Source: Escherichia phage ECML-4. Taken from it: a stretch of 64,000 nucleotides of DNA. The notes below the pieces were generated by a model. The model was not told where the DNA came from and searched no databases. It was given only the letters and a program-made list of their open reading frames with translations. Positions 14,426 through 44,469 of this stretch are shown here, piece after piece (positions within the stretch are counted from its first letter, which is position 1; every line of letters begins with the position of its first letter). The stretch is from sequence record JX128257; one strand, written 5' to 3'. The translations under genes and the position numbers were made by a program.

Positions 14426-15463
14426 ATGGGTAACTTATTTGATCGTCTTAAACAATCTCGTGGCCAACAAGCCGAAGCTATGCAACAGCGTCTCGCTCAG
14501 CAAGGTCAGCGTGTTGGTGGCGGTCGTGACCCGCGCATCTGGAAGTGGACTTGGAATGAAAAAGGCACTTCCGAAAACATTATTCGTTTCCTGCCTATCC
14601 CTTTAGTGGACATGAAGGCTCAAGAAGAAGGCACCATCCCTGAAGATGCTGTGTTAACTCCATGCGCCATGATCATGAAACACGCTTTCCAGGGTGCTGG
14701 CGGCTGGTATATCGAAAACTCACCTCAGACTTTCGGTAACGATGATCCGGTTCGTGACCACGATCGTCCTCTGTGGGCACAACAGAAAGAAACGAACGAT
14801 GAAAAACTGAAGACAGTCCTGAAAAAACGTCTGCCGGACACCAAATACTACGCCAATATCCTGGTGATCAAAGATGGCAATAATCCGGAAAATAACGGCA
14901 AGGTCTTCTTGCTGGAATTCGGTAATGCCGTCAAGAAAATCCTGGATTCGGCTCAGAATCCTAAGTTCTCAACCGACCCGAAATTCGACCCGTTCGATAT
15001 GTGGGAAGGTGCGAATCTGATTCTGAATCTGTACGGCGAAGAGAAAGAGTTCGGAAACTGGAAAGGCCTGGTTGCCAACTTCACCAACGTGAAGTGGGAT
15101 AGTCCGGCACCGCTCGGAACCGACGAATACATTGAAGAGATCTGGGAAAAAGAGCACAGCTTGTTTGAGTTCTTTAATCCGGCCAACTTCAAATCGTACG
15201 AAGATCTGGAAAAACGTTTGCGCAAAGTTCTGGCCATCCCTGATAATCAGCCTCTGGTTGAAGGTGGTGCTTCTACTATGGCACATGCGCCTACCCAGTC
15301 TCAGGAACCCCAGCGCCCGACAGCGCAGGAAAGTCTGAACCAACAACAATCTCAGCCTTCTAATGCACAGCAATCTGTTCCAGCCAATAATGGTGGTGCG
15401 GGTGCCGATGCGAAACAGACGGCTTCCATTGATGAGTTCGAGCAGTTCCTGAAGCAAGACTAA
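14426..15463 (+). CDS. gp32: single-stranded DNA-binding protein, gp32-like
   Basis: N-terminal similarity to T4 gp32 (NIIRFLP ...), acidic C-terminal tail, strong SD. Confidence 0.9.
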   Translation: MGNLFDRLKQSRGQQAEAMQQRLAQQGQRVGGGRDPRIWKWTWNEKGTSENIIRFLPIPLVDMKAQEEGTIPEDAVLTPCAMIMKHAFQGAGGWYIENSPQTFGNDDPVRDHDRPLWAQQKETNDEKLKTVLKKRLPDTKYYANILVIKDGNNPENNGKVFLLEFGNAVKKILDSAQNPKFSTDPKFDPFDMWEGANLILNLYGEEKEFGNWKGLVANFTNVKWDSPAPLGTDEYIEEIWEKEHSLFEFFNPANFKSYEDLEKRLRKVLAIPDNQPLVEGGASTMAHAPTQSQEPQRPTAQESLNQQQSQPSNAQQSVPANNGGAGADAKQTASIDEFEQFLKQD

Positions 15464-39603: not shown

Positions 39604-39650
39604 TAAATTAAGGGGAAGTATACCTTCCCCTTCTTCAATAAAATAAATTA

Positions 39651-40001
39651 TTATTCAGTACAAGCTCGACCAAGTTCAGTCAGGCGGTAGAATGTTACTT
39701 CTGATTTCGGCCAATGCTTATACTCTTCAGAGTCATCATGAACCATAGTGAACGCAGGTTCGATCAGACCTTTAGATAATAATGATTGCCCTGAACGTGT
39801 ATCCCACGGATCACCTTTTACAGAACGAAACCCACCAGCAATCGGAGGGGCATGGAATGTCCATACTGTCTTGCCCTTTTCATTCGTCCAAGACTTCGGA
39901 TTGAAATACCAATGACAAAGGCGTCGATCATCATGGGTTTCAAAATTCAGCATTCCCAGAAGGACACAGAGTTGATGTCCTGTGATTCTTGGCTTTTTCA
40001 T
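39651..40001 (-). CDS. hypothetical protein
   Basis: ORF. Confidence 0.45.
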   Translation of the reverse strand: MKKPRITGHQLCVLLGMLNFETHDDRRLCHWYFNPKSWTNEKGKTVWTFHAPPIAGGFRSVKGDPWDTRSGQSLLSKGLIEPAFTMVHDDSEEYKHWPKSEVTFYRLTELGRACTE

Positions 40002-40330
40002 AAGATCCCCAAGTCAGTAAGGTAACGATAAGACAGGACTACAGATAGAAATCCAATTAACATCCAAGACGACAGGATAGGCTTGCAATTTAGCGTAGTC
40101 TTTCCATTGGGTATGTTGGGACTTCCAGTAATAACAACCGAATCCGTTTTAGCTCTCAACGTCATGACAGAACCCATGAGAATGATTGGGCGCACATAAT
40201 GTCCGTCGCGATTGCGCTTTACAATACATGGTGAAGAAAATCGCAGGAACGGATCACCGCTTTTATAACCGAACAACTCGACCTTTTCTATTTCTTCGGG
40301 AACCTTTTGTCCAGGAAAGAATATTCTCAT
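39998..40330 (-). CDS. hypothetical protein with C-terminal hydrophobic segment
   Basis: ORF with start/stop overlaps. Confidence 0.45.
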
Positions 40331-40887
40331 AATATGATTCCTAAATTTGTGTATAACAATTCAGCTAGAGTAACAGGTCGTTTGAATTGTTCCCAGCTGC
40401 AGTTCAGATATTCACGTTCTTCGCGGATCTTTTCGTGAAGATGTCCGTGGATATTATACGCCCAACGATCTAATTGATACGGAACGTGTGTAGTCAGAAT
40501 CCGACCGACAGAAGTATCCCGCTCATACATGGCACCAAAGGATGTAATCCAGCCCTCCAGATACAACCGCATTAACATTTTGAAACTGTCGTGGTTGCCC
40601 TGTGCCACCCTGATGATAAAGTTCGGACGCCATTCATCGGGAACGGGGCGGCGCTTGAACTCATCAATGTTCCGCTTGGCTCCTTCGCGCATCAGGCGTA
40701 TGAACCCCTCAGCGCCGATAAAGCAGATGTCCCCCGCCAGTTCAAGGACATCCCGAGATTTCAGCCCTTGGAATATGCTGTCTATAACCGCAGCATCATG
40801 GGATTCTTGAGTATCGAATCCACGAGGTTTAAAGACTTTTTTATGCCCGAGGTGAGTGTCACCAAGGTACTTGACAATTCCTGCCAT
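40327..40887 (-). CDS. calcineurin-like metallophosphoesterase
   Basis: GDTHLGH, GNHD and GHLH metal-binding motifs. Confidence 0.7.
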
Positions 40888-41229
40888 TTATGGCCTCCTC
40901 ATCCATTCTAATATTGGGATGCCTACAAACCCTTTATGCCAGCGGTGGGGTTTATGGCCTCTGTTGTGATCCAACAAACAAGTATCTGGAGGAACACTGA
41001 AATGGATACCATCGATATCGTAATAATTCCCGTCGATAAGAGTATACACATGCCCTTCAATCTGGCTGTAATGAATCTCCGCTTGCGGATAAACGTGTTT
41101 GAGAACCAGGGCGACTTGATAGCACTTCCCGTTCTTTCCCACATACTCAACATCCACCTGTTGTGGGAAAATGTCCTTGATCAGATTTATCAATATGGTG
41201 ATATCATTCACTACAACAGATGGTTTCAT
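40888..41229 (-). CDS. hypothetical protein
   Basis: ORF with GGTGAG SD. Confidence 0.45.
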   Translation of the reverse strand: MKPSVVVNDITILINLIKDIFPQQVDVEYVGKNGKCYQVALVLKHVYPQAEIHYSQIEGHVYTLIDGNYYDIDGIHFSVPPDTCLLDHNRGHKPHRWHKGFVGIPILEWMRRP

Positions 41230-41242
41230 CTTCTCATCTCAC

Positions 41243-41905
41243 CTATGATAACTCATAGCGATGGCGGGTACATGCAGGGCAATTACAGTCTTTTCTCAAA
41301 ATTGGCATTTCACACCACGTCATCAAACCATGTATTGGAGACATATGATGATAAAACCATGATTTTTTGAGACTAATCAAAGGATATAAAATTTCAATTG
41401 GCCTTTCCCCGTCTCTTGTCATCATATTGTATCCTTCGATGACCTTATTGAAAGCTGGGATCCAGTGGATCGCGTCGTCCCCGTTGACATATGCCAATAT
41501 GTATGTGGGAGGCAAACTCCGGCCTTTAAATTGTGTGTTTAATAACCATATCGGGGCTTGTGCTAAACACGCACGAAACCCGCCGTCCGGCACGTGAATG
41601 CTACTAATCGGTTCTTGGTGATGAGTCCAACGATGCATAAGAAGCGGAGCATTCTTGTTGATCCAATTATAAATTTTATTTCGCGCCCAATTCTCACGTT
41701 TGGATTTGAAATTATTATTTTCAAGATGGCAATACACAGTATGAACCGAATAACCTTTCGATAATAACCAAACCAACATGTATGTGCTATCCACGCCGCC
41801 TGACCAAAACAATGTCACTTCTTGATTATTTTCCGGCAAAGGTGCATCCCCTTGAAGGACACGGTACACAAATTCACAATCAGATACAGAGACAGCGATT
41901 TCCAT
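41243..41905 (-). CDS. PP-loop ATP pyrophosphatase, QueC-like (putative)
   Basis: SGGVDS PP-loop near the N-terminus and a C-terminal C-x9-C-x-C-x2-C cluster; TAATG coupling to the upstream ORF. Confidence 0.6.
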   Translation of the reverse strand: MEIAVSVSDCEFVYRVLQGDAPLPENNQEVTLFWSGGVDSTYMLVWLLSKGYSVHTVYCHLENNNFKSKRENWARNKIYNWINKNAPLLMHRWTHHQEPISSIHVPDGGFRACLAQAPIWLLNTQFKGRSLPPTYILAYVNGDDAIHWIPAFNKVIEGYNMMTRDGERPIEILYPLISLKKSWFYHHMSPIHGLMTWCEMPILRKDCNCPACTRHRYELS

Positions 41906-42201
41906 TAAATTATTCCCCTCAAAGAGTCATTGATTCTACGCAATTCATTTTCCACCTTTATCTTCATATTTTTGTCGTCGTTCACGAAAATCATTTTATC
42001 TAAATCTTCGCCATTAATCTTTGTATAAAAATAAATGTCATGCTCAAAGAAAATCGTTTTTCCAACAGAACGCATGGCAAAGAATGTCGCAATAGTTCTC
42101 GATAATGGCTTGAACTTAATAGCATTAAAACGCAAAGCCTGATATAGGGGTTTTAATGTTCCCAATCTGATACAGTGCTGAATGATTTCTTGTTCTTTCA
42201 T
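41905..42201 (-). CDS. hypothetical protein
   Basis: ORF translationally coupled to the PP-loop gene. Confidence 0.45.
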   Translation of the reverse strand: MKEQEIIQHCIRLGTLKPLYQALRFNAIKFKPLSRTIATFFAMRSVGKTIFFEHDIYFYTKINGEDLDKMIFVNDDKNMKIKVENELRRINDSLRGII

Positions 42202-42277
42202 CCCATTGTCCGAGTGACGGGGTTTCCGATGAATCCCCCTATGTTTGTTGGTTAAACAATGATACTTTAGTCAAGAT

Positions 42278-42302
42278 ATAGAAAAGCCCCTTTCGGGGCT
42301 TA
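42278..42302 (-). terminator. rho-independent terminator (minus strand)
   Basis: AAGCCCC-GAAA-GGGGCTT followed by TTTTCTATATC on the minus strand. Confidence 0.7.
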
Positions 42303-42590
42303 TTCTTCATCAGATTTGAAAAGGTTCCATCGGCCTATTCCATACCATTCTCCAATATTGTTGGAGTAGCGGGTTGTCCTAACTCCACCGATTTCGTACC
42401 CCCATTTGAAGAAACTCCATCTTTCCTTTAGGGTGGGTGGTTTATTTCCGGTTGCCAAGGAGCAAGCTGTAAGCCAACGTGCGATACTAATGGCTTGAAA
42501 AATTGGATGAATAAACGAATAATACACAACACCCAGAGTTATAATGACGAAGACGCATGTCGTAATCAACCCGACAATTTCAAAGAACAT
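42300..42590 (-). CDS. hypothetical membrane protein
   Basis: N-terminal TM helix. Confidence 0.45.
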   Translation of the reverse strand: MFFEIVGLITTCVFVIITLGVVYYSFIHPIFQAISIARWLTACSLATGNKPPTLKERWSFFKWGYEIGGVRTTRYSNNIGEWYGIGRWNLFKSDEE

Positions 42591-42664
42591 TTATAACCCC
42601 CAATATTGAACACACACTATGATGAACGTTGTGATCGTGAATACCCAGGAGAAGATAGAAAGTT

Positions 42665-43297
42665 TCATTCTTCTACCTTTAGCCCCATCAGGTCTTCCAT
42701 GGTCTTCTGAATACGAAGCCAATCAAGAGCAGCGTCATAACGAGGATCGTGGTATACCATGCCTTCCAGTTCCCAAGCCTTGATACCAGCATAACGATCC
42801 TGTTGCCCAACGCCTTTCAGCCAGCTCACGATGTCGAAGGTGTGATGGTAATCCCAAGGCTCGTTGGAGTCCTGCTTACATGTCACCTCAATGATATGTT
42901 GGGCCTTGCGGAGATCAAACAAGTTTCGGTCACACCAGTCAACCGAGCGCGGGTCTATCCCAAGACGATGACAACCTTTGCGGATTTCATCGGCCAGCTG
43001 GAAGATAGAGGTGTCCTGATCGGTCGGGTACAGGCTGACAGCGCGAGCAGCATCACACGGGTTTCGCTTACCCGTACCTAACCACCATTCAACAGTCCCC
43101 TGATCCTTGACGCGGCCAAGTTTAGTCTGCTCTTTGACATCCAACTTTATGAACGTCGTTCGCTCTTCAACGAGTTGCTGAAGAGTGTAGCGTTTGGTCA
43201 GGTCGGCGATAGTATGCGCCCAGGATAACATAATAGCATCGTCCCAGCGCCCCAGAGTCTCGCTATCGGCGACAGCCAAGAAATTAGATTTATACAT
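42665..43297 (-). CDS. DEDD-family 3'-5' exonuclease (DexA-like, putative)
   Basis: N-terminal ADSETLG (Exo I DxE) and C-terminal YHDPRYDA (H-x4-D) motifs. Confidence 0.55.
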   Translation of the reverse strand: MYKSNFLAVADSETLGRWDDAIMLSWAHTIADLTKRYTLQQLVEERTTFIKLDVKEQTKLGRVKDQGTVEWWLGTGKRNPCDAARAVSLYPTDQDTSIFQLADEIRKGCHRLGIDPRSVDWCDRNLFDLRKAQHIIEVTCKQDSNEPWDYHHTFDIVSWLKGVGQQDRYAGIKAWELEGMVYHDPRYDAALDWLRIQKTMEDLMGLKVEE

Positions 43298-43634
43298 CGG
43301 TTTCCCCCGCTTTCTCTAAAAGAAGTTTCAAAGGATATGTCCCACAAGCGGTGGCATATTCAACTCTGAAATATGAATTATCGTTCATGGCGAAATTGCG
43401 ATGAGGAAAATATTCACCATCATCAAAACCACCCATCCCTCCACCGACGCGATATTGTTTCAATTCTACTTCGCCACCGTAACGCAGTTGGGCGTAGAGA
43501 CCGATAGGAGCGCGAACATAATGCTCCAACCACACCCAATTACCGTCATGTAGACGGGTGGGTAAAAACGCAAACCGTACCTTGGGATGAAGAACGGCTT
43601 TAGCCAACATTTCTTCCGTCACTTCAGATTTCAT
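43290..43634 (-). CDS. hypothetical protein
   Basis: ORF. Confidence 0.45.
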   Translation of the reverse strand: MKSEVTEEMLAKAVLHPKVRFAFLPTRLHDGNWVWLEHYVRAPIGLYAQLRYGGEVELKQYRVGGGMGGFDDGEYFPHRNFAMNDNSYFRVEYATACGTYPLKLLLEKAGETDV

Positions 43635-44236
43635 CCGATGCTTTCCTCTTCGATGACGTCTTCTTCATTAGGAACAACCGAGATCCCAAAGTCGATCATT
43701 TGAGAGAGTTCTTGTAAATCCTTTTCGAATCCATCCCCTTCCCGAATATAGAATACTGGGACCACGCGACGGCGAGTATCTTCAAAGATGGTTTCGGCGA
43801 TTTTGTTAATCTGGCCCACCACATGTGTGAGATTCAAGCCACCAATACCACAACCGATGGCGGGCAAACCGACATAGACAGTTTCATCAGCTTTGGCTTC
43901 AACGATATCATGAATTTGTTCAAACATGATCTGGACTGAGCTAATGATAGATGGCATGCGAGCATTGGGACCTGGGTAAAATTGAGTATACAAATTGAAT
44001 CCCCAGACACCAGTGTCATGATCAAACGCATAGGACATGTTTCCCAAGCGCTGTTCCGGACCACGTTCATCTAATTGGTCGGCGCGGTAAATCTCTGGGA
44101 AATTCAATCGAACGTGATTGGCGATACCCGCGCCCATTACAGACCAACAATTTGCGCCGTGAGCAAAGGCATTGATAAGATTGAAACTCGTGGCGGCTTT
44201 TAATAAATCGCCATTTGTGATAATATAAGTGGTCAT
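43631..44236 (-). CDS. Macro-domain protein (putative ADP-ribose binding / ADP-ribosyl hydrolase)
   Basis: ITNGDLL ... NAFAHGANCWSVMGAGIAN and LPAIGCGIGGL motifs matching the Macro fold; ATG at 44236 with GGAG SD. Confidence 0.65.
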   Translation of the reverse strand: MTTYIITNGDLLKAATSFNLINAFAHGANCWSVMGAGIANHVRLNFPEIYRADQLDERGPEQRLGNMSYAFDHDTGVWGFNLYTQFYPGPNARMPSIISSVQIMFEQIHDIVEAKADETVYVGLPAIGCGIGGLNLTHVVGQINKIAETIFEDTRRRVVPVFYIREGDGFEKDLQELSQMIDFGISVVPNEEDVIEEESIG

Positions 44237-44469
44237 GCGTAACGTCTCCATTGTATAATTTCGTTGTCGACACAACTGACCTGAATGATACACATATTCT
44301 GGCGATGGTCGGTGAGTGTCATAATAAAACTGTCTGGTTGTGACATGACACGATTAACAGATATCCCGCGCGACATCAAACGAAAGCAAATTTCTTGATA
44401 CAAACGTTGCATATATCCTGAAACAGAAGCCGATTCATATGCGCGTTCAAATTCGTATAATTCGTTCAT
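44233..44469 (-). CDS. hypothetical protein
   Basis: ORF. Confidence 0.4.
   Translation of the reverse strand: MNELYEFERAYESASVSGYMQRLYQEICFRLMSRGISVNRVMSQPDSFIMTLTDHRQNMCIIQVSCVDNEIIQWRRYA

Follow-up and report, generated by a model that had tools for sequence, protein, structure and literature searches.

Enzymes of the QueC family have long been credited with one task, the synthesis of preQ0. Canonical QueC (PF06508 cluster 1) carries the signature YxQxHxxE, VPxRN and YPDC, and the residues Y35, R99 and Y131 are essential in Escherichia coli (PMC13329287). A related fold is used by Cap9, the QueC-family ligase of type IV CBASS (PDB 9nto), in which D117 hydrogen-bonds the deazaguanine (bioRxiv 10.1101/2025.04.06.647259). 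In QatC the QueC motifs are absent, but 7-carboxy-7-deazaguanine has been proposed as its substrate (PMC13329287). One phage-encoded relative, a singleton from phage ECML-4, was set aside from isofunctional QueC by Hutinet et al. 2019 as probably belonging to another N-type ATP pyrophosphatase subfamily (PMC6884629). This protein belongs to PHROG 1550, a clade for which literature searches found no functional study.

Results and Discussion

Genomic setting of the PP-loop gene

The window analysed here, 64,000 nucleotides of Escherichia phage ECML-4 (JX128257), was derived from a Kuttervirus with 99.4% identity to Salmonella phage Vi01 and spans roughly 150.3-157.1 kb plus 1-57.7 kb of Vi01. 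The PP-loop gene is located in a region with topoisomerase, dexA and dCMP deaminase genes (Table 1). Since GAGGGG lies 9 nt 5' of the ATG, the gene has its own Shine-Dalgarno sequence.

Table 1. Features of the PP-loop locus in the ECML-4 window
Feature	Position	Strand	Remarks
Terminator-like hairpin, upstream of the 98-aa ORF	42284..42301	-	Probable 5' boundary of the transcription unit
98-aa ORF	41905..42201	-	Orthologue of Vi01_022; PHROG 9302; variable Kuttervirus accessory gene
Shine-Dalgarno GAGGGG	41915..41920	-	Before the PP-loop gene ATG, within the 3' end of the 98-aa ORF
220-aa QueC/Cap9-like PP-loop ATP pyrophosphatase gene	41243..41905	-	Orthologue of Vi01_023; PHROG 1550
PP-loop S35-G-G-V-D-S40	41786..41803	-	Predicted pyrophosphate/ATP binding; read from sequence
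Family motif N63-N64-x2-K67-x2-R70-E71	41693..41719	-	In place of QueC YxQxHxxE; column frequencies and QueC/Cap9 alignment
Family motif Y139-V-N-G-D143-D144-A145	41471..41491	-	Y139 and D143 invariant; Cap9 alignment
Cys4 cluster C198-x8-C207-x-C209-x2-C212	41270..41314	-	Presumed structural Zn site; all four Cys invariant
YunG-like protein gene (PF24591), downstream	40888..41229	-	E 3.8e-44
Calcineurin-like metallophosphoesterase gene (PHROG 547), downstream	40327..40887	-	E 1.4e-42
Terminator-like hairpin, downstream	39610..39632	-	Probable 3' boundary of a six-gene unit

The neighbourhoods of relatives were surveyed in 24 independent viral loci. Within three genes on either side were DnaB-like and SNF2 helicases, UvsX, exonucleases, NUDIX proteins, dNMP kinase and DNA polymerase, so that the neighbour classes across independent phage lineages were replication, recombination and nucleotide metabolism; many of these loci form one syntenic clade, and the functional hint given by the neighbourhood is weak. 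Mostly hypothetical proteins flank the gene in a Vibrio Ackermannvirus and in three jumbo phages (Noxifer, RSL2 and PS119XW). No partner gene recurred across lineages in the 24 loci.

An intact and phage-restricted protein family

The initial annotation had described an SGGVDS PP-loop and a C-terminal four-Cys cluster, and both were found intact in the 220-aa protein. The PP-loop codons are TCA GGC GGC GTG GAT AGC (reverse complement of 41786-41803), and the codons of C198 and C212 were confirmed by direct reading of the sequence. In the predicted model, a strand (residues 29-33) precedes the loop and a helix (38-49) follows it; the SGGxDS motif is thus at the end of the first Rossmann-like strand, as expected of the PP-loop superfamily.

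The protein matched PHROG 1550 over residues 1-219 (E 8.7e-78) and has the motif set of that group: W-SGG-x-DST; NN..K..RE; Q; Y...DDA; FPL.K..K; CE...CxCxxC. It is conserved in 200 phage records, and its representative relatives numbered 1,421 clusters at E<=1e-3 and 636 at E<=1e-10. Across 59 diverse members, G37, D39, S40, Y139, D143, P175, K181, C198, C207, C209 and C212 were invariant, and N63 (56/59), N64 (54/59), E71 (58/59), Q116, A145, F174 and E199 were nearly so. This intact catalytic core argues, at the level of sequence, for an active enzyme. In the wider family the first spacing of the Cys motif is variable, or the motif reads CCxCxxC; in HMM alignments the cluster aligned with the Zn-binding Cys4 of QueC and Cap9. 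A search for informative domain fusions gave no Pfam match to the C-terminal extensions of longer relatives.

Members were seen only in phages and viral contigs: in Ackermannviridae, in several jumbo phages and in many lineages that are uncultured. A set of 185,579 cellular genomes was scanned twice, with the PP-loop as the seed in one scan and the family-specific YV(M/N)(N/G)DDA in the other; neither scan returned a relative, with the proviso that very divergent cellular relatives could escape such short-motif seeding. Phage Ag3 has no PP-loop gene at the syntenic site; the gene is therefore accessory, and dispensable.

Relationship to QueC, Cap9 and QatC

Single-sequence searches (Pfam, NCBIfam, PADLOC and PDB phmmer) gave PP-loop-level matches only, so family profiles were needed. 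Pfam QueC (PF06508) matched the single sequence at residues 33-64 only (23.9 bits versus a cut-off of 22), the NCBIfam QueC equivalog TIGR00364 was not passed (18.4 bits versus 150.3), and the PADLOC QueC model matched the N-terminus only. In contrast, PF06508 was matched by 57 of the 59 sampled family members, and the family profile aligned with Bacillus subtilis QueC (3bl5) over its full length (E 5.5e-11) and with Cap9 (E 1.1e-9); the match to QatC (9vlk) was insignificant (E 0.16). The folds nearest to the predicted model were those of Cap9 and QueC, with Cap9 the closest solved structure. YcfA, a PP-loop enzyme of the 6-thioguanine pathway (PDB 9kq6), was structurally less similar than either and gave no sequence-level match.

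Profile searches placed the protein with QueC and not in an unrelated housekeeping PP-loop family, and full-length profile homology that includes the C-terminal Cys4 places it in the QueC superfamily (PF06508, in the broad sense). The earlier comparison with QueC is upheld by the nearest folds and the family profile, but the single-sequence scores indicate that the likeness is weaker than it looks.

Shared with QueC are the SGGxDS loop, E71 (the terminal Glu of YxQxHxxE), D143 (aligned with the Asp of YPDC), K181 (the conserved Lys) and the C-x8-C that opens the zinc motif. In contrast, IxNNxxKxxRE is found in place of YxQxHxxE; VPxRN is not conserved, with a near-invariant Q116 instead; Y-V-(M/N)-(N/G)-D-D-A replaces YPDC; and the zinc motif is C-x8-C-x-C-x2-C rather than C-x8-C-x2-C-x2-C. 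The positions aligned to the QueC residues Y35, R99 and Y131 are occupied by I/L61, by S/N/F110-N/R111 or Q116, and by M/N141, respectively, with a residue mapping in the VPxRN and YPDC loops that changes according to whether QueC or Cap9 is the partner in the HMM alignment. Of the canonical catalytic signature only the Glu and Asp are retained, with an uncertainty of one to a few residues in the loop alignments.

The clade resembles Cap9 in its compact single-domain Rossmann-like fold (184-220 aa versus about 185-191 aa), its PP-loop and C-terminal Cys4 site, the PL..K lysine, and D143, which aligns with Cap9 D117. However, Cap9 retains the QueC substrate signature (Y/FxQ, RN and YxDC; PMC13329287), which is missing from the clade, and Cap9 is bacterial and encoded beside a CD-NTase with a Gly-rich N-terminus, whereas the PP-loop gene is confined to phages and lacks a partner of this kind. 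The remodelling of substrate-side motifs, with the PP-loop and Cys cluster kept, recalls QatC (PMC13329287); QatC, however, is about 400 aa long, is extended at both its N- and C-termini, carries a motif set of its own and is encoded with qatA, qatB and qatD. No CD-NTase, QatA, QatB or QatD model was matched in PADLOC.

An orphan gene lacking 7-deazaguanine pathway partners

No folE, queD, queE, dpdA or tgt gene was present in the window or among the 208 annotated features of Vi01, and no 7-deazaguanine pathway gene was found beside the relatives in the 24 viral loci. The lack of FolE, QueD, QueE and DpdA-like partners that the initial annotation had reported for the window therefore extends to the whole Vi01 annotation, in which the canonical queuosine-pathway genes were likewise not found. 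Unlike QueC, the gene has no queD, queE or folE context, and the locus does not show the co-occurrence of FolE, QueD and QueE with DpdA that identifies phage 7-deazaguanine DNA modification. The PP-loop gene is an orphan, a status already noted in 2019, and on its sequence the product is almost certainly not a preQ0 synthase for 7-deazaguanine modification of DNA or tRNA.

A role in 5-NeOmdU synthesis was also considered and was rejected: the ViI pathway has been reconstituted from gp67, 160, 226, 243 and 247 alone (PMC8989533), and Ag3 lacks the gene. The enzyme is not needed for this known thymidine hypermodification.

Proposed function

On balance, the gene probably encodes a stand-alone and catalytically competent ATP pyrophosphatase of PHROG 1550, a clade confined to phages and sister to QueC and Cap9: an enzyme that does not make preQ0, acts on what is probably a nucleobase-like substrate and has no dedicated partner. 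An adenylating enzyme acting alone on a different substrate had been suggested from the outset and is likely, since the substrate-side signature of QueC is replaced. The nature of the substrate, and the chemistry below, are assigned by homology with QueC and Cap9. In view of the QatC precedent, motif divergence alone is compatible with 7-carboxy-7-deazaguanine as the substrate.

ATP would be bound by the SGGVDST loop. A small substrate, probably planar and nucleobase-like, would be held by the invariant Y139 and D143 together with N63, N64 and Q116 and adenylated on an oxygen (that of a carboxylate or of a lactam carbonyl), with release of pyrophosphate. A nitrogen nucleophile (ammonia or an amine) would then displace AMP, and the Cys4 cluster would bind a structural zinc.

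Such a clade would be a third large branch of the QueC scaffold with its own invariant active-site signature, and in uncultured viral lineages its gene lies beside helicases and DNA polymerase. Finding the substrate could uncover a counter-defence, or a phage modification of nucleotides or proteins that is new. What is gained at once is narrower: this is a real gene, an orphan, almost certainly no preQ0 synthase, and not paired with its 98-aa neighbour. The database label 'queuosine biosynthesis' is probably wrong, and it can therefore mislead metabolic ('AMG') surveys.

More speculatively, and with a low likelihood in our estimation, PHROG 1550 may perform chemistry new to the QueC superfamily, either phage-side conjugation or consumption of a nucleobase or a new step in nucleotide-pool modification. 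The conjugation version, which shares that low estimate, would involve the diversion of CDG or the ligation of a host 7-deazaguanine, or another guanine-like acid, to an amine or to the N-terminus of a protein; if true, a replication-associated target could be modified or QueC-family immunity (type IV CBASS, QatABCD) disarmed.

Alternative explanations

The enzyme may instead be a nucleobase-protein ligase of the Cap9/QatC kind that couples a 7-deazaguanine carboxylate taken from the host, or some similar acid, to a protein of phage or host origin at its N-terminal amine, possibly to interfere with type IV CBASS or QatABCD immunity. Consistent with this are the position of Cap9 as the closest solved structure, the alignment of its deazaguanine-bonding D117 with an invariant residue, and the restriction of an accessory gene to phages and viral contigs, as is often the case for anti-defence genes. 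However, Y115 and R86, with which Cap9 stacks, are not conserved in the clade, the lineages share no recurrent partner, and no adjacent gene encodes a protein with the unstructured N-terminal Gly motif seen with Cap9 and QatC; known substrates are defined by a Gly-rich tail, M(G/S)G(G/S)GG, whereas the 98-aa ORF starts MKEQEI. In one metagenomic clade, a gene for a 120-aa protein starting MG or MA lies immediately upstream, but it is absent from several loci of the same clade, and hhalign detected no similarity between the 120-aa and 98-aa ORFs. A ligase of this type, including its proposed target and purpose, is therefore considered unlikely.

Less probable again is an enzyme of the TilS, ThiI, TtcA or MnmA type that modifies tRNA or RNA, with the tRNA of phage or host as its target. 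Modification of tRNA is what most PP-loop ATPases do, and among the five tRNAs encoded by Vi01 are Met(CAU), Asn(GUU) and Tyr(GUA). Against this, the protein is a minimal domain of 184-220 aa with no sign of an RNA-binding module such as THUMP or the TilS C-terminal domain, the extensions of its relatives have no Pfam match, and the free-base enzymes QueC and Cap9 are clearly closer than any tRNA enzyme. Neither thiolase catalytic Cys pairs nor 3-Cys Fe-S sites were evident here, and in alignments all four Cys fall on the zinc site of QueC. The [4Fe-4S] PP-loop sulfurtransferases TtuA, NcsA and LarE have an active-site three-Cys Fe-S site, a larger fold and N- and C-terminal zinc fingers.

It is very improbable that the protein is a genuine preQ0 synthase (canonical QueC) drawing on CDG of the host to raise the supply of queuosine, for example for the phage's tRNA-Asn and tRNA-Tyr. 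The RefSeq label ('QueC-like queuosine biosynthesis'), the PP-loop, the Cys4 cluster, the Asp at the YPDC position and the membership of two of the five Vi01 tRNAs in the queuosine-modified GUN family are in its favour. The score far below the NCBIfam cut-off, the family-wide replacement of the equivalents of the essential E. coli Y35, R99 and Y131, the different Cys spacing, a host already equipped with QueC and the exclusion of the singleton by Hutinet et al. 2019 (PMC6884629) argue against it. Judged on sequence, the protein almost certainly makes no preQ0.

Scarcely credible is an obligate unit of the 98-aa protein and the enzyme, such as a substrate or carrier plus ligase: a one-base overlap and a shared position just 3' of a terminator-like hairpin favour it, but the enzyme gene has its own Shine-Dalgarno sequence and the ORF is patchily distributed. 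The overlap was present as originally claimed, with the TAA stop codon and the ATG sharing one base (TAATG, reverse complement of 41903-41907), but the two-protein unit built on it did not survive comparison between genomes. The 99 phage records with the ORF, versus 200 with the PP-loop protein, are without exception Kutterviruses of Salmonella or Escherichia; only some half of Kutterviruses carry it, and it is absent elsewhere. In more distant Ackermannviridae, the PP-loop gene is preceded by unrelated genes. The overlap is incidental, a product of the usual close packing of phage genes, and the dispensable 98-aa ORF is unrelated cargo, not a partner of the enzyme. At a pLDDT of 53, the AF2 model of this ORF was not good enough to search for similar folds.

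The orthologue Sajous1 gp66 was retrieved a single time in a proteomic study (PMC10892097). The Kuttervirus loci L006-L010 have lost the 98-aa ORF though their PP-loop proteins are 92-93% identical; L006 carries a 38-codon deletion remnant of it, ending NDSLRGIF, in which the last codons of the ORF, corresponding to the Shine-Dalgarno site in the window, are kept.

Family placement of the PP-loop protein

The initial annotation described a QueC-like PP-loop ATPase gene whose start codon overlaps the stop codon of a 98-aa upstream ORF as TAATG. This overlap was read from the sequence, as were the SGGVDS PP-loop and the C-terminal four-Cys cluster that had also been reported. The window is that of a Kuttervirus; at positions 40300-43300 it matched Salmonella phage Vi01 and close relatives of that phage with 99.4% identity.

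Features of the PP-loop locus in phage ECML-4
Feature	Position	Strand	Remarks
PP-loop gene	41243-41905	-	220 aa; orthologue Vi01_023
Upstream ORF	41905-42201	-	98 aa; orthologue Vi01_022
PP-loop motif S35-GGVD-S40	41786-41803	-	read from sequence
Cys 198, 207, 209, 212 (C-x8-C-x-C-x2-C)	41270-41314	-	read from sequence
Shine-Dalgarno GAGGGG	9 nt upstream of PP-loop gene ATG	-	PP-loop gene's own

Taken by itself, the protein sequence appeared only marginally QueC-like: the single-sequence Pfam QueC match (23.9 bits) was limited to residues 33-64, the NCBIfam QueC equivalog scored 18.4 bits, below its cut-off of 150.3, and a single-sequence phmmer search of the PDB gave no significant match. PHROG 1550 ('QueC-like') was matched over the full length (E 8.7e-78). 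In an exhaustive profile search the number of representative clusters was 1,421 at E<=1e-3 and 636 at E<=1e-10, and 57 of the 59 sampled family members matched PF06508. In agreement with the proposed QueC likeness, the family profile gave a full-length alignment with B. subtilis QueC (E 5.5e-11) and also matched Cap9 (E 1.1e-9). The structures nearest to the AlphaFold model (pLDDT 84, pTM 0.85) were Cap9 and QueC, followed by ThiI (10.8), YcfA (10.7) and TtuA (10.4). On the basis of the profile alignments and these nearest structures, the protein truly belongs to the QueC/Cap9 branch of the PP-loop ATP pyrophosphatases.

Distribution, orphan status and gene neighbourhoods

Among cultured Ackermannviridae the gene was found in Kuttervirus, some Agtrevirus, Taipeivirus, Miltonvirus, Nezavisimistyvirus and Vibrio members; several jumbo phages also carry it, namely RSL2/RSF1/FLC6/FLC8, PA1C/PS119XW, Noxifer, pEa_SNUABM_54 and Vibrio phage YC. 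IMG/VR yielded 79 loci. No cellular relative was detected when 185,579 bacterial and archaeal species, each represented by one genome, were scanned twice, once with the clade-specific motif as seed; as far as motif-seeded scans can tell, the clade was seen only in phages and viral contigs.

No queD, queE, folE, dpdA or tgt gene was present in the whole Vi01 annotation (208 features); the window covers about 64 kb of that genome. The PP-loop gene is real and was correctly recognized as an orphan. The same orphan situation had already been singled out in 2019 (Hutinet et al., PMC6884629). The gene is also annotated in RefSeq, under a name that is probably wrong. The PHROG 1550 clade is not treated in the 2026 PF06508 survey (PMC13329287), and no functional study of it was found in the literature. 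Fold, motifs, distribution and genomic contexts were established in the present analysis, which adds the extent of the clade, its confinement to phages and viral contigs, its signature and the accessory status of the gene.

Neighbouring genes were clustered across all recovered loci. In a large metagenomic clade the PP-loop gene lies between an SNF2 helicase gene, with or without a 120-aa ORF, and a family-B-like DNA polymerase gene, beyond which are a protein of no known function and a NUDIX hydrolase. Elsewhere its immediate upstream neighbour is a DnaB-like helicase gene, or UvsX and FEN genes are nearby, and in the Ackermannviridae it is located between dexA and the dCMP deaminase gene. 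When 137 neighbours (±3 genes) at 24 largely independent loci were compared with PHROG, the families identified were DnaB-like helicases, UvsX, repair proteins, helicases, exonucleases, NUDIX and ParB-like proteins, dNMP kinase and primase/helicase; no family recurred in more than four of these loci and no Que or Dpd genes were among the families listed. The neighbourhoods support a stand-alone enzyme encoded amid replication and nucleotide-metabolism genes; this context points to no substrate.

In the uncultured phage loci L030-L084, the conserved 120-aa ORF (e.g. L051 4514-4873, L078 2334-2693) is directly upstream of the PP-loop gene, the pair being flanked by the SNF2 helicase and a DNA polymerase of ~1,230 aa. 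Its N-terminus reads M-(G/A)-x-x-Y-x-W-x-x-N-P-F and it has no assigned function. The PP-loop proteins of these loci are extended at the C-terminus by ~80 conserved aa (NYYGLGxFPxxYKK...), for which Pfam gave no match.

The PP-loop gene is accessory

In Shigella phage Ag3 (FJ373894), the Agtrevirus type phage, dexA and the genes for a small membrane protein, the YunG-like protein and a phosphatase are contiguous; a 65-bp gap (15128-15193) occupies the expected site of the 98-aa ORF and the PP-loop gene, both of which are missing there. Among the matches listed for the enzyme, two were from Shigella phages, Gloob and ChubbyThor, and Ag3 therefore appears to lack a copy elsewhere in its genome. 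The Agtrevirus-like phages Gloob, ChubbyThor and EspM4VN carry a version that is ~60% identical. Presence of the enzyme thus varies within one family. The major capsid protein matched 353 records at an identity of at least 60%, compared to about 200 records with the enzyme, a rough comparison in which partial records were counted. The PP-loop gene is an accessory gene.

A role in 5-NeOmdU hypermodification was ruled out. The pathway for ViI DNA was reconstituted from gp67, gp160, gp226, gp243 and gp247 (PMC8989533), without the PP-loop enzyme, and a review describes the pathway genes as conserved across all Ackermannviridae (PMC11721090); both observations place the enzyme outside this pathway.

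Clade signature and proposed reaction

Across 59 diverse members, G37, D39, S40, Y139, D143, P175, K181 and the four Cys residues were invariant, and N63, N64, E71, Q116, A145, F174 and E199 were near-invariant. Canonical QueC is characterized by SGGxDS, YxQxHxxE, VPxRN, YPDC, a conserved Lys and C-x8-CxxCxxC, and Y35, R99 and Y131 are essential in the E. coli enzyme (PMC13329287). In our alignments, in which the loops aligned to QueC and to Cap9 differ by a few positions, the clade retains the PP-loop, E71 as the terminal Glu, K181 as the Lys and the Cys4 cluster, and the Asp of YPDC/YxDC is kept as D143, which aligns with Cap9 D117. In contrast, YxQxH is replaced by IxNNx and the stacking Tyr by M or N. 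Conservation of the VPxRN Arg does not extend across the clade; near-invariant Q116 lies close by, and in Ackermannviridae members R111 is present in this loop.

These differences argue that the clade is distinct from preQ0 synthases. The QueC motifs are missing from QatC as well, although CDG has been proposed as its substrate (PMC13329287); by this precedent, motif loss speaks against preQ0 synthesis but names no substrate. In Cap9, D117 hydrogen-bonds 7-deazaguanine, on which Y115 and R86 stack (bioRxiv 10.1101/2025.04.06.647259). The retained Asp and the clade-specific invariant Tyr139 would be compatible with a planar, possibly guanine-like substrate, and the earlier suggestion of a different substrate seems reasonable.

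Considering classification and chemistry class jointly, we regard it as fairly probable that the protein is an active adenylate-forming ATP pyrophosphatase with a small, probably nucleobase-like substrate that is not converted to preQ0. Homology suggests both this chemistry and the substrate class. The PP-loop would bind ATP, a substrate oxygen (carboxylate or lactam carbonyl) would be adenylated with loss of PPi, ammonia or an amine would displace AMP, and Zn(Cys)4 would be structural. Conjugation to a protein N-terminus as in Cap9 or QatC, possibly as counter-defence, would agree with the Cap9 match and is an unlikely alternative; a tRNA modification enzyme is somewhat less likely again. A true QueC acting on host CDG is very improbable given the altered motifs.

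Five tRNA genes, Met(CAU), Asn(GUU), Gln(UUG), Tyr(GUA) and Ser(GCU), are clustered in Vi01 at 137.2-138.6 kb, outside the window (L089, 37231-38560). Those for Asn and Tyr fall into the queuosine-modified GUN family, a coincidence beside a QueC-like gene.

The 98-aa upstream ORF is not a partner

The translational coupling had been taken to suggest a two-protein unit, which comparative genomics refuted. The 98-aa ORF had 7 clustered homologues only, all close; the 99 phage records in which tblastn located it all belong to Salmonella or Escherichia Kutterviruses, versus 200 records for the enzyme. In the Kuttervirus loci L006-L010 the enzyme is 92-93% identical and the 98-aa ORF is missing. 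A 38-codon ORF in L006 (5885-6001) ends in NDSLRGIF*, matching the 98-aa C-terminus RINDSLRGII, and is a deletion remnant of the 98-aa ORF; the retained 3' codons are the part that carries the enzyme's ribosome-binding site in the window, and the stop/start overlap is also kept. Upstream genes in more distant Ackermannviridae are unrelated (a 70-83-aa family, a 124-aa ORF, an adhesin), and when profiles were compared, the 120-aa ORF from the metagenomic clade showed no match to the 98-aa ORF. The AlphaFold model of the 98-aa protein was unusable (pLDDT 53). The 98-aa ORF is not a partner of the enzyme, and obligate pairing, despite the overlapping codons, is the least credible alternative.

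Six co-oriented genes, encoding the 98-aa ORF, the PP-loop protein, a YunG-like protein (PF24591), a metallophosphoesterase, DUF7618 and a 116-aa ORF, lie between terminator-like hairpins on the coding strand at 42301-42284 and 39632-39610. The former, between a 96-aa membrane-protein gene and the 98-aa ORF, has a perfect 7-bp GC-rich stem (AAGCCCC-GAAA-GGGGCTT) and a terminator-like score on both strands. Vi01 and several relatives have an extra 149-aa ORF, Vi01_025 (L001, 6588-7037; no Pfam match), between the YunG-like and phosphoesterase genes; its absence from the window (site about 40887/40888) explains two-piece matches with a 448-bp difference. The small ORFs at 39998-40330 and 44233-44469 match DUF7618 (E 5e-55) and DUF7234 (E 1e-38), respectively, both recently defined phage families with no assigned function.
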